This document shows positions 4,755 to 63,900 of a DNA stretch of 64,000 bases, in pieces. How positions within the stretch are numbered: position 1 is the first letter of the stretch; the number at the start of each line of letters is the position of its first letter. Under the pieces are notes generated by a model, which saw nothing but the letters and a program-made list of their open reading frames with translations, searched no databases and was not told the origin of the DNA. Source of the stretch: Candidatus Bathyarchaeota archaeon (GTDB taxonomy: Archaea; Thermoproteota; Bathyarchaeia; TCS64); the NCBI GenBank assembly GCA_963769425.1, contig CAVYLP010000003.1, positions 128,001-192,000 on the forward strand, written 5' to 3'. The translations under genes and the position numbers were made by a program.

Positions 4755-4982
4755 CTAGACGGCGTCACCAGTCATCGAAGCGCCGTTCTTTTTGGCGACC
4801 TCGACCACAATGCCGACCTGCCTGGGGTCCATCCCCTTTCCAGCCAGCACTTCAACGAGACCGTCAAGGCTCTTTATCTCCGGGTCCTCTATTGCTCTCA
4901 TTATTCGCCTCGCGTCGTAGTACCCCAAGGCGCTCCTCAGGTCCCTGTAGAGGGCCTTCCTAAACAGCGTGCTCAGCTTCAT
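4755..4982 (-). CDS. Small hypothetical protein closing the hydrogenase operon (possible assembly factor)
   Basis: MKLSTLFRKALYRDL..., overlaps the end of the small-subunit gene; GGAGGG RBS upstream. Confidence 0.55.
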   Translation of the reverse strand: MKLSTLFRKALYRDLRSALGYYDARRIMRAIEDPEIKSLDGLVEVLAGKGMDPRQVGIVVEVAKKNGASMTGDAV

Positions 4983-5457
4983 CTGATCCCTCCCTCCTCG
5001 AAACCTTCTGCTCGACCTTGCCGAGCCCCAGCAGTAGGCCGTGTATGAGCGCCTCGGGTTTCGGCGGACAGCCGGGCACATAGACGTCCACAGGCACCGC
5101 CTTGTCGACCCCACCGACGACGGTGAAGCTGTCATGGAATATCCCACCACCGCAGGCGCAGCTACCGATAGCGACGATCAGCTTCGGATCGGGAGCCGCT
5201 TCGACCGCATTCCGCAGCGTGGCGGCCGACTGCCTCGTAACCGGTCCTGTCACAAGCAGGATGTCCGCATGCTTCGGGCTTGACACCCTCTTCACTCCGA
5301 ACCTCTCCGCGTCGAAGTAGGGGGTGAGCGTGTCGATTATCTCGATGTCGCACCCGTTGCACCCGCCGGTGTTGACGTGGAAGACCCACGGGCTCCTGCC
5401 GAGCCTCCTGATCCTCTCCAGTTTCCCCTCGGCGTCTAGGCTGCGTTCACTGCTCAT
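4960..5457 (-). CDS. Group 4 [NiFe]-hydrogenase small subunit (HycG/NuoB-like)
   Basis: GGCNGCDIE, SPKHADILLVTG, AIGSCA, VPGCPPKP; start re-called at ATG 5457. Confidence 0.93.
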   Translation of the reverse strand: MSSERSLDAEGKLERIRRLGRSPWVFHVNTGGCNGCDIEIIDTLTPYFDAERFGVKRVSSPKHADILLVTGPVTRQSAATLRNAVEAAPDPKLIVAIGSCACGGGIFHDSFTVVGGVDKAVPVDVYVPGCPPKPEALIHGLLLGLGKVEQKVSRREGSDEAEHAV

Positions 5458-5986
5458 CCTTGACCCTCCTGTAGGCGTCCGCGGACGCGTCGCCCCAGCG
5501 CGTCTTCTTGCACTCGGGGCAGAGATGAACCATTCCCTTGAGGCTCTTGTCGAGTTCGTATGCAAGTTCCCCATACTCCGCGAGGGTGTATTCGAGCGCA
5601 CGCTCGGTCGTGAAGTAAGAGCCGCACCCCTCGCACTTCACCCTCCGCAGCCGCAGCTCGACTTCTAGCGCCTCCTTGGTGGTGGAGGCGAGCTCGTAGT
5701 CCTCAGAGAATCTAATGGCGTCTACTGGGCAAACCTCCTCGCAGAGGCCGCACATTATGCACCTACCGTAGAATAACTTCAGCTTCCACGACTCCTCTTG
5801 CTCCTCGATGGTCAGGGCGTTGGGCGGGCACACGCGTGCGCATGCGCCGCAGCCGATGCAGGTGTCGAACCCGATCTCGGGCCTCCCCCTCAGCCCCTCG
5901 GGCACCGGCCTCCTCTCGGAGGGGTACCTGTAGGTGACCCTGCCCTTCCCGATGCCGAGTCGGAGAAGCTTGATGACACCACTCAA
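5447..5986 (-). CDS. Hydrogenase 2x[4Fe-4S] subunit (HycF/NuoI-like)
   Basis: CIGCGACARVCP and CIMCGLCEEVCP, plus the C-terminal CEGC/CPEC pair typical of HycF. Confidence 0.92.
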   Translation of the reverse strand: MSGVIKLLRLGIGKGRVTYRYPSERRPVPEGLRGRPEIGFDTCIGCGACARVCPPNALTIEEQEESWKLKLFYGRCIMCGLCEEVCPVDAIRFSEDYELASTTKEALEVELRLRRVKCEGCGSYFTTERALEYTLAEYGELAYELDKSLKGMVHLCPECKKTRWGDASADAYRRVKDEQ

Positions 5987-7650
5987 ATAAGTCGCCTCCC
6001 AAGGTCCTCACCTGAGACGACTCTCTCCACGCCACTCCCCACGTCGACGATAGCAACTCTCTCCGCGCAGGAGATGCACGGGTCGATGCTGCCTATGATG
6101 ATGGAGGCGTCCGCAAGCGTCTCCCCCACGAGCATCAGCTTCGCCGCGGGTAGGTTCGCGTAGGTTGGCGCCCTAACCCTCCACCGGTAGACGGTGTTAT
6201 CCCTCCCAGTTATGAGATAGTGCGCGTCCGTTCCCCTAGGGCCCTCAACTAGTCCCACGGATGTCACGTCGGACGGTATGTAGTCGATGGGCTGATGCAC
6301 AGGGCCACCGGGGATCCCCTCGAGGACCTGCCTCATGATCTTGATGGACTCTAGTGTGTCGTTGGCTCTGATGAGTGTCCGCGCGAGGACGTCCCCGCCC
6401 GACTCCACGGGGGTCTTGAACTCGAGGCTGCCGTAGGCCTCGTAGGGGAAGTCGCGTCTGACGTCCATGTCGACGCCCGAGCCCCTGGCGAGGGGACCCG
6501 TCACGGAGTGCCTCTTCGCCTCCTCGTTGGATAGACGACCTACACCCTTTAGCCTCCGCTTCAGGGTGTCGATGTCGAGGACCGCACCGAGTAACTCCTC
6601 GTATTCGAGTTGAACTTCGCCGATGACCTTGAGGGCCTCCTTCCTCCTGTCCTCCCTTATGTCCCTCCTCACGCCGCCGGGCACGATCATCCCGTACTGC
6701 TTCCGGTTCCCCGTGAGGAGCTCGGCGAGGCCCATCACCCTGTCCCTCACCCTCCAGAACTGCATGAGGCCGGTGTCGAAGCCGACCATGTGGGAGGCGA
6801 CGCCCAGCCAGAGCAGGTGGCTATGTATCCTCTCCATCTCCAGCATAGCGACGCGTATCCACCTCGCCCTCTCCGGCGGTTCGAAGCCAGCCGCCCCCTC
6901 AAGGGCCTGAGAGTAGGCCTCGGCGTGGACGGAACCACAGATGCCGCAGACCCTCTCCGCGATGAAGGGTATAGTCTCGTATGTGAGCCTCGTCTCCGCT
7001 ATCTTCTCCAGTCCCCTGTAGTTGAAGCCCGCCCTGAGGTCGACGCCCATTATCCTCTCCCCGTCGGCGTGGAACCTGAAGTAGATGGGCTCGTGTATGG
7101 CGAAGTGGTAGGGGCCGTAGGGGATCACGTTGAACATCGGGGCGTCCTCAGGCGCCTCAAAGGGGAAGCTGCCCGTCTCCTTCGTCGGTACCTGCGTATC
7201 GACCTTGAAGCTCTTCCTCATCGGGAAGACGTCATCGGGCCAGTCGTCTGCCATGAGCAGTTTCCTCGGGTTCGGGTGACCCACCGGCGTGAGGCCGAGC
7301 GACTCTTTGGCCTCCCTCTCATACCAGTCCGCGCTTGGGACCAAGGGAGTGACTGAGGCGAAGGACTCGTCCCCTCTCCTCGTCGTGGCCCTGAAGACGA
7401 TGGTCTGCCCAAGCCTGTACCATCCCAGCACATAGTCTACGAGGTAGTCATCCTCGGTGTCAACTCTGTCGGTGGCCACCATAGTGAGGAGGTTACCACC
7501 GATGGTGTTGTGGGCGTACTCAACCACGGCTGGGAGATGCTCCTTCCGAAGCTCTATCAGCCAAGTGTTACCGCGTAGGATGCTGGTCGATTTGACCTCG
7601 TTTGGGAACTTTTGCCGAATCTCCTCGACTATGTTTCTCTCCATGTTCAC
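5983..7650 (-). CDS. Group 4 [NiFe]-hydrogenase large subunit (HycE-like, NuoC+D fused)
   Basis: L1 motif ERVCGIC and L2 motif DPCISC intact; C-terminal extension after the motif; N-terminal WYERE NuoC domain. Confidence 0.95.
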   Translation of the reverse strand: MNMERNIVEEIRQKFPNEVKSTSILRGNTWLIELRKEHLPAVVEYAHNTIGGNLLTMVATDRVDTEDDYLVDYVLGWYRLGQTIVFRATTRRGDESFASVTPLVPSADWYEREAKESLGLTPVGHPNPRKLLMADDWPDDVFPMRKSFKVDTQVPTKETGSFPFEAPEDAPMFNVIPYGPYHFAIHEPIYFRFHADGERIMGVDLRAGFNYRGLEKIAETRLTYETIPFIAERVCGICGSVHAEAYSQALEGAAGFEPPERARWIRVAMLEMERIHSHLLWLGVASHMVGFDTGLMQFWRVRDRVMGLAELLTGNRKQYGMIVPGGVRRDIREDRRKEALKVIGEVQLEYEELLGAVLDIDTLKRRLKGVGRLSNEEAKRHSVTGPLARGSGVDMDVRRDFPYEAYGSLEFKTPVESGGDVLARTLIRANDTLESIKIMRQVLEGIPGGPVHQPIDYIPSDVTSVGLVEGPRGTDAHYLITGRDNTVYRWRVRAPTYANLPAAKLMLVGETLADASIIIGSIDPCISCAERVAIVDVGSGVERVVSGEDLGRRLI

Positions 7651-8564
7651 AACCCCAAGGCCGGAGCTAGGTACGCAAGGATCAACGAGAACACCGATAG
7701 GATCAAGACGAAGCCGTAGAACCTCGACGCCTCAAGGAGTCTGAACCTGGCGTTCAGGGACTCGGCGAGTGACAGCACTAGGGTGCAGATAATGAGACTC
7801 GCAAGGTATACGATCACGACAGCGACCGAGTAACCGACGCCGTTCAGTCCCGGTGATACAAGCGCCGAGATGTAGAACGCTGGGATGGAGCACAGGGCAA
7901 GATTCCTGAGGTACTGCCCCAGCTTCAGGGTCCCGAGGGAGGGGCCACTGAACTCGATCAGTGGACCACCCGTGATCTCAGATTCTGCTTCCGCCACGTC
8001 AAACGGGGTCCTCCCACTCTCGGCGAGGAGGCAGAGGAAGTAAGCCAACCCGCTAAAGAGCAGGGGAATCAGAGCCACATACCCGCTCGCTGAGTAGTCT
8101 AGGGTCGTCGAGCCCCTGAGAATCACCAGCGAGACGAGTGACGCGATCATGGAGGGTTCGACAACTGTTGCGAGTATGACCTCCCTGGAGCCGCCGACCA
8201 CGCCGTAGGGGTTCCCGCTCGCGCTTCCCGCTAATGCGAAGGTGAAGGCCGAGAGGACGACCAGCTCGATGAAGACGATTCCGCCATCCAATATGGGCGC
8301 CTGAGCAGTCACTGTCGACATGGTCGCGAACATTGCGAGTGAAAGTACGAGTGTAAGCACGGGCACCATGACGAACAGGATGCCGCCCGATTCGGGAAGG
8401 ATGACTTCCTTCGAGAATAGCTTTAGTACGTCGTGCCACGACTGCGTGACTGGCGGGCCGACCCGGTTCTGGAGCCTCGCCGTTATCTTCCTCCGCAGCC
8501 CGTCGAGGAGGGGCGCGATCAGTATGGCCAACGCAAGGTTTACGACTAGAGGCAGGATGTTCAT
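7647..8564 (-). CDS. Hydrogenase membrane subunit (HycD/NuoH-like)
   Basis: RKITARLQNRVGPP and ESGRTPFDVAEAESE motifs; multiple TM helices. Confidence 0.93.
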   Translation of the reverse strand: MNILPLVVNLALAILIAPLLDGLRRKITARLQNRVGPPVTQSWHDVLKLFSKEVILPESGGILFVMVPVLTLVLSLAMFATMSTVTAQAPILDGGIVFIELVVLSAFTFALAGSASGNPYGVVGGSREVILATVVEPSMIASLVSLVILRGSTTLDYSASGYVALIPLLFSGLAYFLCLLAESGRTPFDVAEAESEITGGPLIEFSGPSLGTLKLGQYLRNLALCSIPAFYISALVSPGLNGVGYSVAVVIVYLASLIICTLVLSLAESLNARFRLLEASRFYGFVLILSVFSLILAYLAPALGL

Positions 8565-33824: not shown

Positions 33825-34466
33825 GTGTCTTCCCGGGAAAAATTAGTCGACGCTTTCCTCAATCTGGATGAACTCAGAACACAACAGGTAGTCAAATCGA
33901 TGTTGGATAAAGGAGTGGACCCAGTTGAGATCCTTGAAGAATGTAGAATAGGAATGCTCGAAATCGGGGAGCGCTTCGAGAGGGGTGACTTCTTCCTATC
34001 CGAGATGATCATGGCCGCTGAGATCTTCAAGCAGGTGACAGATCAGATTAAGCCACACTTGGTCGGTTCAGACTCAGCTAGAGGTACGATAGTAATCGGG
34101 ACGGTTTCTGGTGATGTTCATGACATCGGCAAGAACATATTCATCTCGCTGCTCGAGGTTGAGGGATTCCGCGTTGTCGACCTTGGTGTTGACGTACACT
34201 CAGAGAAGTTTGTCGAGGCTATCTTGGAACATAAGCCGGAAATCGTGGGTATGAGCTGTCTTCTCAGCAACTCAATCGATGAGATGAAGATAACCGTAGA
34301 CGCTATCACCCAAGCGGGGCTCAGAGATAAGACGAAGATCATTGTCGGGGGAGGAAGACTCGAAGGGGATGCCGCCGAGTACATCAAGGCGGATGCCTAC
34401 ACAGATAATGCAGCTAAGGGTGTGAAACTGTGCTTGGAGCTGCTGAGAGGTGAAGATGTTGAGTGA
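33825..34466 (+). CDS. Corrinoid (B12-binding) protein of a methyltransferase system
   Basis: GDVHDIGKN (DxHxxG), VGMSCLL, IVGG. Confidence 0.93.
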   Translation: MSSREKLVDAFLNLDELRTQQVVKSMLDKGVDPVEILEECRIGMLEIGERFERGDFFLSEMIMAAEIFKQVTDQIKPHLVGSDSARGTIVIGTVSGDVHDIGKNIFISLLEVEGFRVVDLGVDVHSEKFVEAILEHKPEIVGMSCLLSNSIDEMKITVDAITQAGLRDKTKIIVGGGRLEGDAAEYIKADAYTDNAAKGVKLCLELLRGEDVE

Positions 34467-35685
34467 GGACTTCGAGGAACTCTACAGACTCCGTCAGGAG
34501 AGGATCAGCCGAGTTGTACAGTTGAAGGAGCCTGACAGGGTTCCTCTAGTTGAGAGTTATGGATACTTCGCTGCAAGATACGCTGGGATAACCAGTTACG
34601 AATTCCTCTATGACTACGATAAAGCGCGGGAGGCCTCTGTAAAAACCGCGGTCGACTTCGGTTATGACACAGCGGGTGGCATGAATACCCTCGGAGCACT
34701 TCCATTATCGGTGGCTTTCATAGGCGAGTTCGACGGGTTACCTCCAAGCTTCGTCAACGGACCTATGCATGACATCCTTGGTGTTAGGTACGCTAGGTTC
34801 CCTGGGCGGGAGCTCACAATCGACTCGCCTTTCCAATTCATTGGTGAGGAATACATGAAGGCGGACGAGTATGATCAATTGATTGAGGAGCCAAAGAAGT
34901 TCATTGCTGAGAAGCTTCTTCCGCGCACGCTTCGAAGCCTCGAGAATCCCGGCTCTGCGAGGGCTATGTCTGCTTTGTACCGATGGGGGGTCGAGCACAG
35001 GAGGAGCTCGGAGGAGGCGGCTAGACTCAGGCAGGAACTGAGGATGTGGGGTTTCGCGGGCTTCACTGAAGGCATCTCATACGCGCCACTTGACTTCATA
35101 GGCGACTTCATGAGGGATCTAAAGAACACCCTGCTTGACTGCTACAGGCAACCCGACAAGGTGAAGCAGGCAGCCGAAGCCGTTAAGGGCCTAATCATAG
35201 AGATGGCGAGGATCACGGCAAAAACTACGCCAAAGGGCGCAATCGTCTTCATTCCTCTGCACCTGAATGAGTATTTTTCGCCAAAGCAGTACAGCGAGTT
35301 CTACTGGCCCACATTAAAGGACGTCATTAACGAGCTCATCAAGTTAGGGATTACACCAGAGGTCTTCTACGAGGGACAGCACGACGCACACATCGAAACC
35401 ATACTCGAGTTACCCAAGGGTAAGACTATATCGCGGTTTGAGAAGACGGACCTGAATAAGGCGAAGCGTATAATTGGTGACCACTCCTGCATCATAGGAG
35501 GTCCCCCAGCGTCTCTGTTCCTGACGACTCCAGCCAAGGTCGACGCTTACGTTAAAGAGTTGTTTAGCGAGGTCAAGCAGGGGGGTGGATTCATACTGAG
35601 CCCTTCAGTGCCGATACCGTCCTCCTCGAAGCCTGAAAACGTGAAGGCCTTGATGGATGCTGTTAAGAAGTACGGAGTCTATTAA
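34450..35685 (+). CDS. UroD-fold corrinoid-dependent methyltransferase
   Basis: EPDRVP, EYMKADEYD, EFYWPT, GGGFIL, KPENV; overlaps the corrinoid gene; likely start ATG 34456. Confidence 0.82.
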   Translation: MKMLSEDFEELYRLRQERISRVVQLKEPDRVPLVESYGYFAARYAGITSYEFLYDYDKAREASVKTAVDFGYDTAGGMNTLGALPLSVAFIGEFDGLPPSFVNGPMHDILGVRYARFPGRELTIDSPFQFIGEEYMKADEYDQLIEEPKKFIAEKLLPRTLRSLENPGSARAMSALYRWGVEHRRSSEEAARLRQELRMWGFAGFTEGISYAPLDFIGDFMRDLKNTLLDCYRQPDKVKQAAEAVKGLIIEMARITAKTTPKGAIVFIPLHLNEYFSPKQYSEFYWPTLKDVINELIKLGITPEVFYEGQHDAHIETILELPKGKTISRFEKTDLNKAKRIIGDHSCIIGGPPASLFLTTPAKVDAYVKELFSEVKQGGGFILSPSVPIPSSSKPENVKALMDAVKKYGVY

Positions 35686-35901: not shown

Positions 35902-36383
35902 ATTTCGGTGTGCATCTCTTCGGATTAAAAGTCATTATGGTTTTGAAGTTCATCAAATTAAAAAACTCAATTAACCTTATGAGAATGCGTTAATCTCTTT
36001 TTTTACGCGAAAAATAGTATGATGTGGTAAGGAGTTGACTTATTGCATAAGGGTGGTTGAGACGATGGGTGGCCCCATCGGCTTTGAGTCGAAGGTTAGT
36101 GAAGCTATACATTTCATGACTAAGCTGCTTCTTAAAATCAGACGACGACTTGGAACTGGCTAAAACTGAAAAACTGCTCCAGATTTTTAAAATTTGAAGG
36201 CGTGGGCCCTCTTTGGGTCTTTATGTTGGGGCTTGACAGAGAATCCCAGAGGTCTGGAATAGTCGAACTAAGGGGGTTATGTGACACGTTAGATTCGTTA
36301 TGGATTTACAATATTAAGAAAGTACTTATTACATTACTATTAAAGCACGTTCATATTAAATAATTACAAGCCATGATCAAAAG

Positions 36384-36704
36384 ATGATGGACTTCCCTGA
36401 CTCGCATGCGCATAAGGAGGAAACGCAGCCAACGAACTGTCCGCTATGCGGTAGAAATATGACGCTGATACATGACTTAACGGACTTCAGTGTTCAACTC
36501 TGCTACACGCATGGAGTGTTTGTTGTGGATAAGCCGACGAGAGATGTTTGGATCTTGGAGGGCTTCAAGGGGGAGATGGTGCCGATTAAACGCAAGTGGT
36601 ACACAGTTGAGAACCACAAACCGCTCACCCTAGACAAGTACAGGGACATGGTAAAAATGGCTAATCTTAAGCGGCTGGAGGAAAAGTCAGCTATCCGTTC
36701 TTAG
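36384..36704 (+). CDS. Zinc-ribbon hypothetical protein
   Basis: CPLC...CYTH. Confidence 0.6.
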   Translation: MMDFPDSHAHKEETQPTNCPLCGRNMTLIHDLTDFSVQLCYTHGVFVVDKPTRDVWILEGFKGEMVPIKRKWYTVENHKPLTLDKYRDMVKMANLKRLEEKSAIRS

Positions 36705-36873
36705 CATTGCGTAAAATACCCATGTTCCTCTTATTGGGGGTATTCATCGAAATTTGTTTAGTATTAATTCCCTCTATTCGGATTGAGCAGATTATAAAGA
36801 AAGCGTTTGTCGATTTTTTAGTCTAGCTATTCTAGAAATCATAATAATAAAAACAGAAAAAATTAAAGATAAA

Positions 36874-37434
36874 TTAAACCATTAAGTTATCGTTTTTCTT
36901 CTTTTCTCCAATAATTGCTCTTAGTTGCCTTATTTCAGACTCTTTTTGAATTAATTCTCTTTCTAAGGTTTCGATGTATACATCTTGGGCACGAATAGCC
37001 CCATCCATTTTAGCAGCTAGGTCATTTATTAATGCTCCTTGGCTTACTATAGATACGTTAGGTACATCCACTATCTCTTGATTCAATTCAAAGTATATTT
37101 CTCTTATTTCGTTTAAATGTTTTAATGTCTCTGAGTCCATAATATTAAATCTTACACTATCTTCCATGGCCTTCAATGTTATTCTTGTTGATTCCTCATA
37201 GTTTTTAAGTTTTTCAAGATTTGAGGAAAAAGTTACGGCATCTATTACTTCAATCATCTTTTTCGAATTTTCTTCAAATAATCGTATTTGTTCTACCGCT
37301 GCTTCTAGTCCTTTATTATAGGAAGCATCCGATCGAATTATCTTGTTTGTTATTTCAGGTTTTTCTTCGGGACTTGATTTTTCCACATTTTCCTTGGACT
37401 CATCAACTGTGTCTTTTTTCGTTTCTTGGCTCAT
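36874..37434 (-). CDS. Acidic coiled-coil hypothetical protein
   Basis: 186-aa ORF, AT-rich codons, AAGGA RBS. Confidence 0.6.
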   Translation of the reverse strand: MSQETKKDTVDESKENVEKSSPEEKPEITNKIIRSDASYNKGLEAAVEQIRLFEENSKKMIEVIDAVTFSSNLEKLKNYEESTRITLKAMEDSVRFNIMDSETLKHLNEIREIYFELNQEIVDVPNVSIVSQGALINDLAAKMDGAIRAQDVYIETLERELIQKESEIRQLRAIIGEKKKNDNLMV

Positions 37435-37728
37435 GATTCCTTTAATTATTAATAGTTTATTTAAAATTTCCGAGTTGGTTAATTATTTTTAGAGTCGTAA
37501 AGAATCGTGCGTGTTAAAAAATTGCAGAATCTCATGGATCATTTTGGATACTTTATGGACATAATCACACTCTAGTGAAAAATACTGCGCATAATCTATA
37601 AACCAGGTATAACAATCTAACCCTCCCTAAAGAATTCGTAGAAGTATAACAATCGCCCATTGGTAAGAGGCTTAATGATAGGGAAAAAAAATGATACGAT
37701 ACTGATTGGTGGAGGGATACTTCTGTAT

Positions 37729-37947
37729 TTATTTTGAGAAATTTAGGTTACGATTATTAACTATTTGTTTCTTCTTCAGCGTATAGAGAAGCAATTTATC
37801 GAACTCTTCGAGGTCGAGTTCCATATTGGAAAGACCTTTTAGGTCGAATACCTCGCCGCATTCTTCACAGATATATTTTTCGTCGTCGATACAGTTCAAT
37901 GTACCTTCACATGCTGTGCAGCGAAACTTGTGAAGCTGGGCAATCAT
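37729..37947 (-). CDS. Small zinc-finger protein
   Basis: CTAC...CEEC. Confidence 0.6.
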   Translation of the reverse strand: MIAQLHKFRCTACEGTLNCIDDEKYICEECGEVFDLKGLSNMELDLEEFDKLLLYTLKKKQIVNNRNLNFSK

Positions 37948-38186
37948 TTATCTTCATTATTAGAGTTACATTTAATGATAATAAATCATTACGGAGTGTT
38001 ATACGATATGAACAATCCATTGGTTTTTCTGGTTGTTTCAGATCTGTTATAATCCATCGGTCGGTTTCTAAACTCAATAATGCTCGAATCAGGAAAAAGA
38101 TTGAGACGATGGTGAACTACAGGAGTTAGGGAAAAAATCTAAAACTATGCACATTTAGCGAACGCTAGCTTGCATATGGGTATTCG

Positions 38187-52789: not shown

Positions 52790-52906
52790 TGGTCCCGCCT
52801 CCGGGATTTGAACCTGGAACCACTCGGTGTCTGCTCAAGGCCTGATTGCCTTCGCCCCGCGGGGCGGAAGCTACAGCCGAATGCTCTACCATTGAGCTAA
52901 GGCGGG
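52790..52906 (-). tRNA. tRNA-Tyr (GTA) with a 42-nt intron at 37/38 (52829-52870), CCA encoded
   Basis: CCCGCCTTAGCTCA...TTCGG CT GTA G [intron] A CCGAG...GGTTCAAATCC...GGCGGGACCA; BHB central helix CTGT/GCAG. Confidence 0.95.
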
Positions 52907-59161: not shown

Positions 59162-59647
59162 TTGTCAGCGAAAGCACAGATTCTGAGGGAGCTAGCAGAG
59201 TACCACTTCAACTCACTCGAGGAGGCCCTTAAAGACCTCGACGAGAAGGAAGCAATGTACAAGCCAACAGATGAGTCAAACAACATCGAATGGATAGTGA
59301 ACCACCTCTGCAGGATCAGCAACACGGCAATCCCGCGCATCCTAAAGGGGGACCCAAACTACAAGCCCACCGGGTGGCCCGACGACTACAAGGACAGACA
59401 CTACAGTATCACTAAGTACATGGAGGACCTCGCCATGGGGAAGAGGGCAGCCCTCGACGGCATCGGTAAACTCACCGACGCACAGCTAGAGGAGGAGATC
59501 CCGCTTTGGGGTGGAACCAAGAAGAGAAAGATTGGTCTCTTCGCCTACATCGGCGAGATCATCCACCACAAAGGACAGATTCTCTACATCAGGGGGACCG
59601 TGAAGCGCTTCAAGGCGAAGGATCCCAACTTCCTCGCCGACTGCTAA
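59162..59647 (+). CDS. DinB/YfiT-like four-helix metalloprotein (thiol S-transferase superfamily)
   Basis: NNIEWIVNHL and EIIHHKGQI metal-site motifs. Confidence 0.85.
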   Translation: MSAKAQILRELAEYHFNSLEEALKDLDEKEAMYKPTDESNNIEWIVNHLCRISNTAIPRILKGDPNYKPTGWPDDYKDRHYSITKYMEDLAMGKRAALDGIGKLTDAQLEEEIPLWGGTKKRKIGLFAYIGEIIHHKGQILYIRGTVKRFKAKDPNFLADC

Positions 59648-59726
59648 AGTGGCTCAAATAGGCTAAAAAATGCGTAGTATTATATACCAATTTCAACTGA
59701 TTTTAATGCGGAATTCTGGTGGTTAG

Positions 59727-60185
59727 ATGACAGTAAAGACGAAGATGATAAAGGACTTTGCACAGATCGGATTCGACAGGCTCGGCAGCGCAACGAAGAC
59801 CCTGAAGCCTGAGCAGCTCGACTGGAAGAGCTGCACCCAGGCCAACACGATCAGGTGGATACTAACCCACCTGAGCGAGGAGCTGAACGTCTCCCTCCCC
59901 AAGTTCCTCGGCGAGGAGCAGCCTAAGGATTGGCCGAAGGACTACGTCGGTAACCCGAAGTACAAGATGGAGAAGATCATGGCCGACATCGAGAAGGGGC
60001 ACAGGAAGCTCAACGCGGGCCTCAACAAGCTAACGAACGACAAACTCGATGAGGAGGTGGAGGCGTGGGCGGGTAAGAAGCCCCGCGAGTTCTACCTCAT
60101 GCTCATGGTGAGTGAGATAATCCACCACGAGGGGCAGATCGCGGCCATCCTCGGCGTCGAGAAGAGGATTAAGGGCACCAAGTAG
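59727..60185 (+). CDS. DinB/YfiT-like protein, tandem paralog
   Basis: NTIRWILTHL, WPKDY, EIIHHEGQI. Confidence 0.85.
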   Translation: MTVKTKMIKDFAQIGFDRLGSATKTLKPEQLDWKSCTQANTIRWILTHLSEELNVSLPKFLGEEQPKDWPKDYVGNPKYKMEKIMADIEKGHRKLNAGLNKLTNDKLDEEVEAWAGKKPREFYLMLMVSEIIHHEGQIAAILGVEKRIKGTK

Positions 60186-60245
60186 CCGCCCACCCCCTTT
60201 TTATTTCACCTTTCTAGACACCCTATCTGTTAGGGGGCATCTTGT

Positions 60246-61364
60246 ACGAGGATCGGTATAACCTGTTACCCGGGCGTCGGAGGCAGCGGCATACTGGCCA
60301 CGAGGCTCGGCGTCGAGTTCGCCAAGAGGGGCCACGACGTCCACTTCATAACATACGAGCGTCCGTTCGCCGTCCAGGGTATAGATCAGGAGAACGTCCA
60401 CATACACCTCGTCAACGTCCTCGAATATCCCCTGTTTAAATATCCCCCGTACACTGTCGCCCTCGGCTCCGAGATGGCTAGGGTCTCCCAGCAGGAGAAG
60501 CTGGATGTGCTCAACGTCCACTACGCCATCCCGCACGCCACGGCGGCCTATCTCGCCCGTGAGATAACGGGGGTCCCCTACGTTGTGACTCTCCACGGCA
60601 GCGACGTCACAATACTCGGTAGCGACCCCAGCTACCAGATCGTCAACAATCATAGTGTCGAGAATGCGGACGCTGTGACCGCGGTTTCCAAGTTCATGCA
60701 GAGGGAGGCATACGAGAGGCTTGGGATCGAGCGCGAGGTTAAAGTGATACCCAACTTTGTCGACACCCAGGCATTCGCCCCCGCTCCCTACGGCGCATCC
60801 AAGGCCGACTACGACGAGTGTGGAGGTATCATTCACGTGAGCAACTTCCGCCCCGTGAAGAGAGTCCCCGACCTTGTCCACGCAATGGCCGTCGTGGCCG
60901 AGGCTGAGCCGAAGGCGAAGCTGACTCTAGTGGGAGACGGTCCGGACAGACCTGGCGTAGAGAAGCTGGTAGACAGCCTTGGGCTGCGCAGAAACGTGAC
61001 CTTGACGGGGTTCAGGAGCGACATCCCCAACCTCATGCGATGCAGCGATATCGGCGTATTGTGCAGCGAGACGGAGAGTGCCCCATTGACACTACTCGAA
61101 GGGATGAGCACGGGGCTCCCCATGGTGGCGACGGAGGTCGGTGGCGTGCTCGAAATCGTGGATGAGGGCAGTAACGGGTTACTCGTTCCCCCGAAGCAAC
61201 CAGAGGAGTTAGCCCAGGCGATACTCCGCCTCTACAGGGACCCGAAGCTGAGGAGCAGACTAGGAGAGAATGCCCGCAAGACCGTTCTTGAGAGGTACAC
61301 AGCGGAGAAGGTTGTCAACCAGTACATTGAGACCTTCGAGGCAGTCTCAGTGCCTAGAGGTTGA
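60246..61364 (+). CDS. bshA: N-acetyl-alpha-D-glucosaminyl L-malate synthase (GT4)
   Basis: RIGITCYPGVGGSG, YPLFKYPPY, VHYAIPHA, TLHGSD, HVSNFRPVKRV; frame open from 60246. Confidence 0.9.
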   Translation, partial: TRIGITCYPGVGGSGILATRLGVEFAKRGHDVHFITYERPFAVQGIDQENVHIHLVNVLEYPLFKYPPYTVALGSEMARVSQQEKLDVLNVHYAIPHATAAYLAREITGVPYVVTLHGSDVTILGSDPSYQIVNNHSVENADAVTAVSKFMQREAYERLGIEREVKVIPNFVDTQAFAPAPYGASKADYDECGGIIHVSNFRPVKRVPDLVHAMAVVAEAEPKAKLTLVGDGPDRPGVEKLVDSLGLRRNVTLTGFRSDIPNLMRCSDIGVLCSETESAPLTLLEGMSTGLPMVATEVGGVLEIVDEGSNGLLVPPKQPEELAQAILRLYRDPKLRSRLGENARKTVLERYTAEKVVNQYIETFEAVSVPRG

Positions 61365-63093
61365 CGTAGAAGACCGTCGAATTCGGGGTCCAGCCGCCGT
61401 AGAGCCTCTTGTATATATTAACGTTCTCCACTAAGCCCGAGGCGAGGGCGAGGTCGATCCATGCCCAGCTGACCTCCTGCCCGTACTTCTCGGGGGCGAA
61501 GTGGCCGAAGGCGTAGGAGAGGTAGGCGTCCAGCTCTTGGGCCTGCACCTGCTTCGCCTTCATCTCTTGCATGAGGGCTGCCCTCGTCGCCGGGTCACCC
61601 AGTCTGTGCTTTATAGCATCGACCTCCGACTCGGCATCCTCCTTCGCCTTGCTCAACGCGGTGTAGGTCTCATCGATGGCCTTCCTTATCCCGGCGTGTG
61701 CCTGGGAGATGCCCTCGACGTTGTTCGTCTTCTTCGCTTCCACCCATGAAGCGAGGGCGTCGAACAGCTCCCTTCGTGAGAGGGTCGTGTACCCCTTAGT
61801 TTCTAGGTTTCTGCCCGCCACCTCATTCCAAGGCGTGTTGTAGAATACCCTTGCGTAGCGGGTGTAGGTGGGGAATGGTATTCCAAGCTGGGAGACGCCG
61901 GGTATGACCTCGGCGTAGTAGCTCGTCTCCCCCGGCCCGCCAACGTGTGCGAGGACGGGGATAATGGAGTCGACGACCACCTGTCTAGAGTCTACCCTAG
62001 GGGTGATAATTTTCCCTATCTCCTCGATGTCCGGCTTCTCCGCCGAGAAAGAGTAGCTGTATGTCTGCTCGCACCTCGGGCATTTGCCCTCAACGCTCGC
62101 CGTTGAGCCGGAGCCCGCACTGTACTTTAACTCGACCCTGCTCCCGTGGCAGCTCGGGGTCTGGCACTCTAGGAAGAAGGGGACGTAGTCCATTGACCTC
62201 TTACCTATCTGCGCCCTATAACCCAGCCCCTCGATCAGGTCGACGGCGTCGTTAGATGAGCGAACAAATCTGCTCCGATTCGGCTCGGAGAGGAGAACCT
62301 CGTACCCGTGCCTGAAGAAACCCCTGATGGCTGGATCCGTAGCCGAAAGCATCGGTATCCCCATATCTGACTCAAGGTTCAGTACAGAACCGAGTATCTT
62401 CGTAGAGAAGTCGGCGACGTTTTCCGTTGAGTAGTAGGAGCCCTTTATGATTGTGAAGACGTGAGAGAGGTTCTGGAGTACCTTCTCCTGTTTTGCGGGC
62501 TCCACACCCTTGAGGAGACCCCTGTAGTTGCTCTCTAGTTTCTCTAGGGTCTTCCTGAGCCACTCCTCGTCTGGATTTGGCAGCCTACGTATGGGTGCGC
62601 CCTCGTAGTCGGGTGGAGAAGGATAGGTTATGAGCATACCCCTTGCTGATGGACTCGGAACCCGGATATTGAGCAGTTCAGCCTGGACGCTGTCGTAGTC
62701 CCCTACGTAGTAGAGTGGGACGTACCCTCCACCGAGGCTAGCGAGGGTCGAGATGTATGTTATCTTGTTGAAGATGAAGCTAGGACCTCCGAGGCAGTTC
62801 GGCTGCTGACCCGTCTCGACGACCCCCTTATCGAGGGAGTCGATCCTCTTCGAAGCCTTCGAGGTCAATATACCCAGCCCTCGCATCTGGCTCTTGATGG
62901 CCTTCTTGAGCCCCTCAAGCTCGGGTGGCGGTGTGCCGTACTTCGCCCTTATCTCGTCGAAGTACCCGTAGCACTCGGCCATGTTCTGGGGTATCCCCCC
63001 CCAAAGGCGGGGTGCGTATTCGCCACTCGGGTCCTTCTCCGTGTACTTCTGATATAGCATATGAACTGGGGGATTATCACTCACATCATTCAC
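61354..63093 (-). CDS. bshC: BshC-like cysteine-adding enzyme with a Cys-rich insertion
   Basis: TGQQP..LGGP...FNK, PLYYVGDYD, DSIIPVLAHVGGPGETSYY, QE near the C-terminus. Confidence 0.8.
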   Translation of the reverse strand: MNDVSDNPPVHMLYQKYTEKDPSGEYAPRLWGGIPQNMAECYGYFDEIRAKYGTPPPELEGLKKAIKSQMRGLGILTSKASKRIDSLDKGVVETGQQPNCLGGPSFIFNKITYISTLASLGGGYVPLYYVGDYDSVQAELLNIRVPSPSARGMLITYPSPPDYEGAPIRRLPNPDEEWLRKTLEKLESNYRGLLKGVEPAKQEKVLQNLSHVFTIIKGSYYSTENVADFSTKILGSVLNLESDMGIPMLSATDPAIRGFFRHGYEVLLSEPNRSRFVRSSNDAVDLIEGLGYRAQIGKRSMDYVPFFLECQTPSCHGSRVELKYSAGSGSTASVEGKCPRCEQTYSYSFSAEKPDIEEIGKIITPRVDSRQVVVDSIIPVLAHVGGPGETSYYAEVIPGVSQLGIPFPTYTRYARVFYNTPWNEVAGRNLETKGYTTLSRRELFDALASWVEAKKTNNVEGISQAHAGIRKAIDETYTALSKAKEDAESEVDAIKHRLGDPATRAALMQEMKAKQVQAQELDAYLSYAFGHFAPEKYGQEVSWAWIDLALASGLVENVNIYKRLYGGWTPNSTVFYVNL

Positions 63094-63744
63094 CTCAACA
63101 GATTCTTGGCTGACTTCGCCTCGTAGAACGGCCCGTTCTTCGCCAACGACTCCTCGATGAAAGCCTCAGCATACTCGCAGTTCGCCTGGACTCCCCTCAG
63201 CTCCGCCTTCTTGTCGTTGAACCTCTGGTAGTAGTCCCAGGGGAACTTCGCCAACTGGGAATCGTAGGCCCCTACCGCGGCTCTCTTCACCTCCATCGTC
63301 TCGGAGATGTCGATCAAGAGGTGGGGGCTCGGGATGAGGGTGTTTATCTCCATGAGGAGGAGACGCTCGACTAGGTGGGGCTTAACATATGTGGTCGTGT
63401 GAGCTGCCCACTCTATAGCCTCCTTCACGACCTCGTACGCAGTCCTGTGGTCGGCATGGTAGTCGAAGGGCAGGTGGGTGACGACTATCCTCGGCCTCTC
63501 CGCCACGATCACGTCGGCCACCCTCTTAATTAGCTCCCTCGAAGGGGAGACGTTGTCCTCCATGAAGACGATCGGCTCAGCCAACCCAAGGGCCTTACAC
63601 GCCTTCATCGATCTCTCCCTTACGATTTCTAGGGTTGCACGTCAGGCATAGAACTCTTGACACCTTTGTGTGTAGCGCGAGGGTGCCACCACAGCCGAAA
63701 GTTTCATCGTCAGGGTGGGAAACGATGGCAAGAATTCCGTCCAT
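63090..63744 (-). CDS. bshB: PIG-L/LmbE-family N-deacetylase (BshB-like); frameshifted near 63605-63635
   Basis: MDGILAIVSHPDDETFGCGGT, THLPFDYHADH, YAEAF; ATGA overlap with bshC. Confidence 0.78.
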
Positions 63745-63900
63745 GGAGCTCAAACGATTAGGGAAACCAAGGCATAAAAGGGGTTCCCCGATTATTCAAT
63801 ATCGGCAAACATCAGAGTGGTTGAAATTAATAGGGTTGTGAAACCGCAGGGGAAAACGCTTTCCGGTGGGCCTGATAGATATCGTGTCGCCTTGAGTCCG

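Follow-up and report, generated by a model that had tools for sequence, protein, structure and literature searches.

A stretch of 64,000 nucleotides from the genome of Candidatus Bathyarchaeota archaeon (contig CAVYLP010000003.1, positions 128,001 to 192,000; hereafter the window) carries a cluster of five genes between positions 59162 and 63744 that may encode a bacillithiol pathway of archaeal type. The host, a sediment archaeon, is represented by a Bathyarchaeia metagenome-assembled genome (MAG) of 2.55 Mb in six contigs, which is 91% complete and in which the window corresponds to C3:128001-192000. All gene coordinates were taken from the open reading frame (ORF) listings of the interval 59162-63744. 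The plus strand encodes two proteins of the DinB_2/MST superfamily, DinB1 (59162-59647, 161 aa), a candidate thiol S-transferase as judged from its family, and its paralogue DinB2 (59727-60185, 152 aa). They are followed by bshA (60246-61364), a gene for a GT4 glycosyltransferase with 372 codons when counted from an ACG. On the minus strand are a bshC-like gene (61354-63093, GTG start, 579 aa), encoding an archaeal-type BshC with a predicted zinc-ribbon insert, and a bshB-like gene for a PIG-L deacetylase (63090-63744), which occupies two frames in the assembly (63598-63744, then 63090-63641).

The ORF listings agree with the preliminary description of this locus on the position of the five genes, and the motifs quoted there (IGITCYPGVGGSG, YPLFKYPPY, HYAIPHA, SNFRPVKR, HPDD, TGQQ, GGP and GPGE) are all seen in the translations. 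Some of its statements need correction. The bshB and bshC genes were described as a convergent pair, but both are read from the minus strand in the same direction, with a 4-base overlap; the convergent genes are bshA and bshC, the 3' ends of which overlap by 11 bases. The cluster was also called complete, but in this assembly the frame of bshB is interrupted and bshA lacks a canonical codon at its start.

The three predicted biosynthetic genes

BshA scores 389.6 bits against the NCBIfam equivalog model TIGR03999 (cut-off 273.7) and thus passes at equivalog level, by 116 bits, as had been proposed from its motifs. The match covers residues 6-371 of the protein and positions 2-373 of the 375 in the model, and a Thorarchaeota BshA reaches 389 bits against the same model. 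Solved BshA structures are matched with E values of 5e-91 (3MBO), 7e-91 (2JJM), 7e-84 (5D00) and 1e-76 (6N1X/6D9T). In a quick maximum-likelihood tree of BshA, the 16 Bathyarchaeia rows and the 15 Asgard rows form one clade each (SH-aLRT 99), and both clades are set apart from the three bacterial rows. Since three bacterial rows are too few, neither a donor nor a direction of transfer is stated.

No ATG, GTG or TTG is present in bshA before 60474, and the position at which members of the family start, two codons ahead of IGITC, holds ACG (60246), with the frame open from 60234. Among 38 sequences, this position is occupied by TTG in 24, ATG in seven, GTG in three and ACG in four, the ACG carriers being the window and the loci L021, L022 and L025. 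These four genomes are distinct at the species level, with mutual synonymous divergence (dS) of 0.44-1.1. The ratio of nonsynonymous to synonymous divergence (dN/dS) among them is 0.04-0.08 over the entire bshA and 0.01-0.05 in the 76 codons that precede its first canonical start. These ratios indicate strong purifying selection on bshA, and the low value in the upstream 76 codons means that these codons are translated. This is most simply explained by initiation at the ACG or, two codons downstream of it, at an ATH codon. Thus, bshA likely represents a natural case of initiation at ACG or a near-cognate codon in an archaeon.

The surroundings of the ACG are consistent with such a start. Eight bases ahead of it lies a G-run (60233-60237) that may act as a Shine-Dalgarno-like element, and relatives carry GGAGG, GGGGG or GTGA at an equal distance before their TTG or ATG start. 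Further upstream, a T-rich TATA-like box, TTTTTATTT (60198-60206, plus strand), is kept in nine of nine aligned relatives and could provide bshA with its own promoter. Many public BshA gene calls are shortened to 292-317 aa because of the non-canonical start, and gene callers truncate the ACG-type protein to about 296 aa. A second frameshift, caused by the loss of one G from the 60233-60237 run, was considered as a different explanation for the 5' end of bshA and rejected: contigs from the public sequencing runs X1, X2 and X3 are free of an indel here, and the alignment of relatives places the true start two codons before IGITC.

The bshB-like gene would encode the deacetylase of the pathway. 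Both of its pieces pass the PIG-L model PF02585 (37.0 and 29.4 bits, cut-off 28.2), in line with the family assignment made earlier, and the best family match is BshB1. The translations contain HPDD and a later HADH (H-x-D-H), and the assignment of these motifs as metal ligands follows excerpts of a review (PMC5790435). The frame is disrupted by one extra base near 63607. This base is present in none of 11 relatives, whose bshB genes are intact (217-243 aa), nor in one contig each from the public runs X3 and X4, which represent strains 95-99% alike. Across all public runs, the contigs compared derive from strains 90-99% alike, with at most 0.34 of the sampled words found in any run. Among the 24 runs listed there was no RNA data set containing this DNA, which carries no information on expression. 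Ten genes of this genome could be compared with orthologues from at least three relatives, and three of them are split in two frames: bshB, its downstream neighbour (C3:191877-192774, from window position 63877 past the window end, L001 4021-4737; split in seven of seven queries) and one gene on another contig (C2:50593-51721; three of five queries). As the extra base is unique to this assembly and frame splits affect three of the ten genes, an assembly indel is preferred, and the break in bshB is quite probably of this kind rather than the mark of a dead gene.

A further apparently split gene was noticed by eye on contig C5 (L114 about 4784-6470). The MCM orthologue of the close relative L025 (12892-13714) is found in two pieces, seemingly in two frames, so that the L025 assembly may contain a frame break as well. 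A second PIG-L gene, also on C5 (L114 2927-3562), was considered as a BshB2-type backup and rejected. While the gene itself was assigned by a Pfam match, its neighbours, read by eye, are sialic-acid-synthase-like, aminotransferase and pyruvyl-transferase-like ORFs, and it probably belongs to a sugar-modification cluster and not to the bsh genes.

The state of bshA and bshB could alternatively mean that this particular strain is losing the pathway or keeps it silent, bshB being a pseudogene and a change from ATG to ACG crippling the translation of bshA. The frame break in the sequence as given and the ACG at the start position fit this idea, as does the fact that the genome has just one more PIG-L gene, which lies within the sugar-modification cluster, away from bsh. 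However, the ACG is common to four species-level genomes, and the low dN/dS across them (0.01-0.08) implies that bshA has been under selection since the start codon changed. In addition, the insertion in bshB is unique to an assembly in which other genes are split likewise, and bshC, DinB1 and DinB2 are intact. Decay of the pathway is therefore an improbable explanation.

The BshC-like protein matches PF10079 (Rossmann-like_BshC) at 60.5 bits, above the cut-off of 27. Its alignment with 37 canonical BshC sequences, all of which match TIGR03998 (the first at 496.7 bits), reaches a probability of 99.95% in hhalign, with an E value of 1.4e-38 over 383 columns. An alignment-based AlphaFold model of the protein has a pLDDT of 95.3 and a pTM of 0.93, and the best solved match of this model in Foldseek is B. 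subtilis BshC (4WBD, E 1.7e-19, TM 0.65/0.69), followed by class-I lysyl-tRNA synthetase (LysRS). On the evidence of the model, the protein has the BshC fold, consisting of a Rossmann core and a coiled-coil C-terminus. The GQQ/GGP and GPGE motifs are retained.

The BshC-like protein differs from canonical BshC by an insert with four cysteines. When 1.84 billion representatives were searched in full with HMMER, 270 relatives were returned with E values up to 0.001, 50 of them with values of 1e-30 or lower, and the strong matches all contain C-x(2-5)-C ... C-x2-C, corresponding to Cys310, Cys315, Cys338 and Cys341 in the window protein. Across an alignment of 34 rows, C310 and C338 never vary and C341 hardly does, whereas canonical BshC has a cysteine-free hairpin at this place. 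In the predicted structure, the strands flanking the four cysteines (306-350) adopt the layout of a zinc ribbon, and a weak 55-column fold match to an RNA polymerase I chain is compatible with this assignment. Among 30 representative clusters of this subfamily that were looked up, nine carry names, eight of them archaeal (Bathyarchaeota, Ranarchaeia, Hodarchaeales/Thorarchaeota, Odinarchaeota, two Promethearchaeota and two Heimdallarchaeota/Kariarchaeaceae) and one belonging to an Anaerolineae MAG. Going by these names, the BshC-like subfamily comes almost only from archaea, namely Bathyarchaeia and Asgard.

Gene order, linked genes and residency

The conservation of the locus was followed in species-representative genomes by searching for BshC with a 10-row alignment, and the best 80 of 102 relatives were compared. 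They comprise 50 Bathyarchaeia-type loci (47 labelled Bathyarchaeota/Bathyarchaeia, among them one labelled only 'uncultured archaeon', and three bacterial-labelled) and 30 Asgard loci. In the Bathyarchaeia-type loci, bshC is accompanied by bshA in 40, by bshB in 41 and by both in 36; the corresponding numbers in Asgard are 29, 23 and 23, and many of the remaining loci are truncated at the end of a contig. At least one DinB gene is present in 35 of the 50 Bathyarchaeia-type loci and two are present in 25, but none occurs in the 30 Asgard loci. Of the 40 Bathyarchaeia-type loci with bshA, 33 have a DinB gene directly upstream of it and in the same orientation, and three of the seven exceptions end at bshA. 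In Asgard, bshB is divergent from bshA-bshC (L070-L100, e.g. L073 4048-7719), and a phosphohexomutase-like ORF was noticed by eye just upstream in L073. As the gene order is conserved across relatives from two archaeal phyla, which the preliminary description had named as a check, the bsh genes are functionally linked, judging from genomic context. Shared occurrence and location with bshA and bshB is also how BshC was originally recognised.

The two DinB proteins had been taken as evidence that the thiol is not only made but also used. Both carry a DinB-superfamily domain, as claimed, with 37.2 bits (DinB1) and 46.4 bits (DinB2) against PF12867 (DinB_2; cut-off 24.8). DinB1 also scores above the cut-off of PF04978 (36.6 bits), while DinB2 stays below that of PF05163 (22.2 bits, cut-off 23). 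Their only NCBIfam match is MST_Rv0443, which DinB1 reaches with 37.8 and DinB2 with 28 bits against a cut-off of 170, and no BstA-type model was matched by either protein in the NCBIfam and Pfam searches. The assignment to a bacillithiol-type usage was thus too specific, since the DinB proteins qualify as superfamily members only.

Two further genes are associated with bsh in other Bathyarchaeia. A gene for an Amidohydro_2 protein lies between bshB and bshC in 37 more distant loci, and a gene for a CxxC-containing Thioredoxin_9 protein lies between bshC and bshA in 21 loci; the distant relative L034 provides an example of both (4968-5912 and 7719-8312, respectively). In the genome studied here, the counterparts are located outside the bsh cluster, at C1:364919-365860 (Amidohydro_2, 70% identity) and C4:281173-281760 (Thioredoxin_9, 51% identity), and the Amidohydro_2 gene adjoins a third DinB_2 gene (C1:366029-366400). 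As a protein linked to the cluster in other loci, Thioredoxin_9 may be a candidate to stand in for the redox-recycling proteins of the bacterial system.

The cluster is a resident of one family of Bathyarchaeia. In a class-wide sample of 401 genomes, the BshC-like protein was found in 59 of the 70 genomes of the window's family but in only one of 330 genomes from the other 36 families of the class, and this single match is weak (65 bits). Within the genus, bshC is present in 16 of 17 genomes. This distribution indicates that the trait is long resident in that family and not in the class, which upholds at family level the earlier view that the genes were not acquired recently. The core-like base composition noted before was also recovered, with a GC content of 0.568 in the cluster and 0.547 in the genome (standard deviation 0.06 across 5-kb windows).

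A bacterial origin of the DNA itself, either by contamination or through a chimeric contig, had been named as a possible refutation and was checked. Its one apparent support is that three related loci (L036, L037 and L041) bear bacterial bin labels (Desulfaltia, Krumholzibacteriaceae and Patescibacteria), with Bathyarchaeia-type bsh genes inside. However, these contigs measure 2.3-8 kb, come from isolates with the common prefix SMAG_U14 and encode proteins with 54-55% identity to those of Bathyarchaeia, and they are probably mis-binned. The contig that carries the cluster, by contrast, spans 383,910 bases and has archaeal flanks, with MCM at a distance of 1.7 kb and a 114-nt tRNA match at 52793-52906 (minus strand), the length of which suggests an intron, as is common in archaea. 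The order MCM-ino1-ndk-DinB-bshA is repeated in two relatives (L021 and L025), and the gene is present in nearly all genomes of the genus, as stated above. The contig was judged non-chimeric, so that chimerism is excluded for practical purposes and the probability of a bacterial contaminant is negligible.

The neighbours had been listed as gins-mcm-ino1-ndk. MCM, myo-inositol-1-phosphate synthase (Ino1) and NDK are located upstream of the cluster and were recovered by Pfam, but the ORF proposed as GINS has no Pfam match at E 0.001. Elsewhere in the window, a corrinoid-binding-like ORF followed by a methyltransferase-like ORF (33825-35685) was read by eye. They adjoin a stretch of low GC content (36001-38000; 0.364 at 36-38 kb), which contains a 186-aa coiled-coil-like ORF and may be an inserted element.

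Predicted pathway and competing readings

In the favoured reading, to which a probability of about 0.6 is assigned, the five genes encode the bacillithiol pathway in an archaeal form and constitute a genuine, vertically maintained cluster of one Bathyarchaeia family. BshA, as a GT4 enzyme, would transfer an N-acetylhexosamine, most likely GlcNAc from UDP-GlcNAc, onto L-malate, and the PIG-L protein BshB would remove the acetyl group. The BshC-like protein, with its Rossmann fold resembling class-I aminoacyl-tRNA synthetases and its predicted zinc ribbon, would then add cysteine. The product would be bacillithiol or a very close analogue, and the two DinB-superfamily proteins encoded beside bshA could conjugate this thiol to electrophiles.

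Several observations speak against this reading, in addition to the broken frame of bshB and the unusual start of bshA. The pieces of BshB score 68.1 and 16.9 bits against TIGR04001 (cut-off 182.5), and the intact proteins of relatives also remain below this cut-off (76.5, 74.6 and 90 bits). The BshC-like protein reaches 72.9 bits against TIGR03998, far from the 265.8 required, so that the model comparison proposed for it had a divided outcome, with PF10079 passed and the equivalog model failed; other archaeal BshC-like proteins score 61.8 and 85.8 bits. It is 18% identical to canonical BshC profiles, its sequence match to 4WBD has an E value of only 0.014, and the reaction of canonical BshC itself has never been reconstituted, according to excerpts of a review (PMC5790435). 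On the redox side of the proposed bacillithiol usage, BrxA/B and YtxJ were not found in the 91%-complete genome with TIGR04191 and TIGR04019, and the best match to the Bdr model TIGR04018 has 69.7 bits, below the cut-off of 339.9. Finally, BshA lacks the expected GlcNAc-contact motif ESFG and Thr120, and shows ESAP and HGS instead.

The change in the sugar-binding region extends to other archaeal BshA proteins. While three bacterial BshA proteins (from Bacillus, Brevibacillus and Bernardetia) have ESFG and LHGTDIT, 114 of 120 public Bathyarchaeia homologues contain ES[A/T/S]P or EN[A/S]P, the other six being unmatched by this pattern, and LHGSDVT is found in 120 of 120. The five aligned Asgard sequences all have EGMP. 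In excerpts of one study (PMC10361700), the E and F of ESFG are described as contacting GlcNAc and T120 (S. aureus numbering) as functionally important, and a Neisseria GT4 enzyme in which P replaces this G is linked to specificity for Gal over Glc. By analogy, the donor sugar of the archaeal BshA may differ from the bacterial one, although this is only a hint: the bacterial side of the comparison consists of three proteins, and ESFG is possibly not universal among bacillithiol makers.

Given the altered sugar-contact residues and the sub-equivalog scores of the BshB-like and BshC-like proteins, the product could be a variant. The cluster might thus make a thiol akin to bacillithiol that differs from it chemically, with a different hexosamine (e.g. 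GalN), a different aglycone or a further modification. In favour of such a product, all archaeal BshA proteins compared have an altered donor-site motif, with a parallel in the Neisseria enzyme, and the Amidohydro_2 gene found between bshB and bshC in 37 loci has been kept in this genome, at 70% identity and beside the third DinB_2 gene. On the other hand, BshA lies well above its equivalog cut-off and closely resembles B. anthracis BshA in the N-terminal domain on the acceptor side, and the analogy with the Neisseria enzyme is remote. A chemically distinct thiol is accordingly a serious possibility, albeit an unlikely one. A broader version of the same idea appears slightly more doubtful still. 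In it, Asgard and the one Bathyarchaeia family would share a pathway for a thiol that has not been seen before, with a sugar or aglycone unlike that of bacillithiol, and in these anaerobic archaea this thiol would serve as the main redox buffer. The pathway would combine a proline-pocket BshA, a divergent deacetylase and a zinc-ribbon BshC, joined in Bathyarchaeia by DinB, Thioredoxin_9 and Amidohydro_2 proteins.

A further alternative to the bacillithiol-type reading is that no thiol is made at all. The cluster could instead produce a GlcN-malate-type solute, or a sugar aminoacylated with an amino acid other than cysteine, in which case the likeness to bacillithiol synthesis would be merely ancestral. 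The strong divergence of the BshC-like protein could be explained in this way, as could the failure to find a bacilliredoxin or Bdr in the genome; even the substrate of canonical BshC is described as undefined in excerpts of the review cited above (PMC5790435). Yet the BshC-like protein keeps the GQQ/GGP and GPGE motifs, and partners connected with thiols are conserved as well, namely the DinB_2/MST-like genes and, in 21 loci, the CxxC Thioredoxin_9 gene. A non-thiol glycoside is therefore very unlikely. With the archaeal bacillithiol pathway as the preferred reading, the original statement that this organism makes bacillithiol or a variant of it is sustained in part: the genes are real and archaeal and BshA is an equivalog, but the BshB-like and BshC-like proteins fall below the corresponding cut-offs.

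Relation to known thiol systems

The bacterial BshA/B/C systems of Bacillota, Deinococcus-Thermus, Chlorobiota and Bacteroidota share with the archaeal cluster the same three linked families, BshA at equivalog level and the fold and motifs of BshC. They differ in that the archaeal BshB-like and BshC-like proteins are below cut-off, that the latter has the predicted zinc ribbon and that BshA has ESAP and HGS. Brx, YtxJ and Bdr were not found in this genome, and the host is an archaeon. The homologues in Asgard archaea (PMC7278568) are of the same protein types, with bshB, bshA and bshC together and the zinc ribbon in the BshC-like protein in common. In Asgard, however, bshB is divergent and DinB is missing from all 30 loci, whereas Bathyarchaeia combine the DinB-DinB-bshA order with bshB-bshC in convergent orientation to it.

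Mycothiol synthesis by MshA, MshB and MshC, together with MST, follows the same logic, employing a GT4 enzyme, a PIG-L deacetylase, a cysteine ligase of class-I fold and a DinB-fold transferase. However, the window proteins score only 73.7 bits against the MshA model (cut-off 462.5) and 18.4 bits against the MshB model (cut-off 224), and MshC is a weak fold match (E 0.1). The neighbouring ino1 was considered as a functional partner that might supply an inositol-phosphate acceptor, as for MshA, and rejected; because it is adjacent in only three of 50 loci, inositol phosphate is unsupported as the acceptor. The BstA/YfiT S-transferases resemble the DinB proteins in being four-helix proteins of the DinB superfamily that are encoded beside thiol-synthesis genes, but PF12867 is the only one of the models that both archaeal proteins pass and an equivalog-level match is absent, so that their S-transferase role is a prediction from family and context.

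To our knowledge, a low-molecular-weight thiol has been shown biochemically for neither Bathyarchaeia nor Asgard archaea. The presence of bsh genes in archaea had nevertheless been noted before. In 2020, Rawat and Maupin-Furlow reported 39 archaeal InterPro hits for BshA and as many for BshC, most of them from Asgard (PMC7278568, in excerpts), and Bathyarchaeota proteins are already annotated as BshA and BshC in NCBI and JGI records. The novelty of archaeal bsh genes was thus overstated in the preliminary description, and with the claim already contained in this review and in public annotation, the degree of surprise is moderate. In the excerpts of section 13, the review mentions neither Bathyarchaeia nor the zinc ribbon or the altered motif, and a 2025 study, as excerpted, finds the full pathway in no RefSeq archaeon (PMC12719100). 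In a literature search, no work linking bacillithiol to Bathyarchaeia was found, and for Asgard the 2020 review alone was relevant by title and abstract. No description of the zinc-ribbon BshC, the ESAP motif or the Bathyarchaeia cluster was found in a search that did not include the structure papers on BshA and BshC. New here are the BshC with its predicted zinc ribbon, the altered sugar-contact motif of BshA and the linked DinB, thioredoxin-like and amidohydrolase genes.

The cluster is real and of moderate interest as an archaeal form of a known pathway, the product of which is predicted from the genes. The tree, with its three bacterial rows, suggests a separate archaeal lineage of bsh genes and no recent import from bacteria, and the differences from the bacterial proteins can be stated concretely: BshC has a predicted zinc ribbon, and in BshA ESAP replaces ESFG. 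These genes also bear on the reaction of BshC, which is described as open even in Bacillus (PMC5790435, in excerpts). The most useful result is the recognition of an archaeal-type variant that is common to Asgard and to one family of Bathyarchaeia. If this variant does make a new thiol, its zinc-ribbon BshC might be tractable in vitro, unlike the bacterial enzyme so far, and could then reveal the chemistry of cysteine activation.

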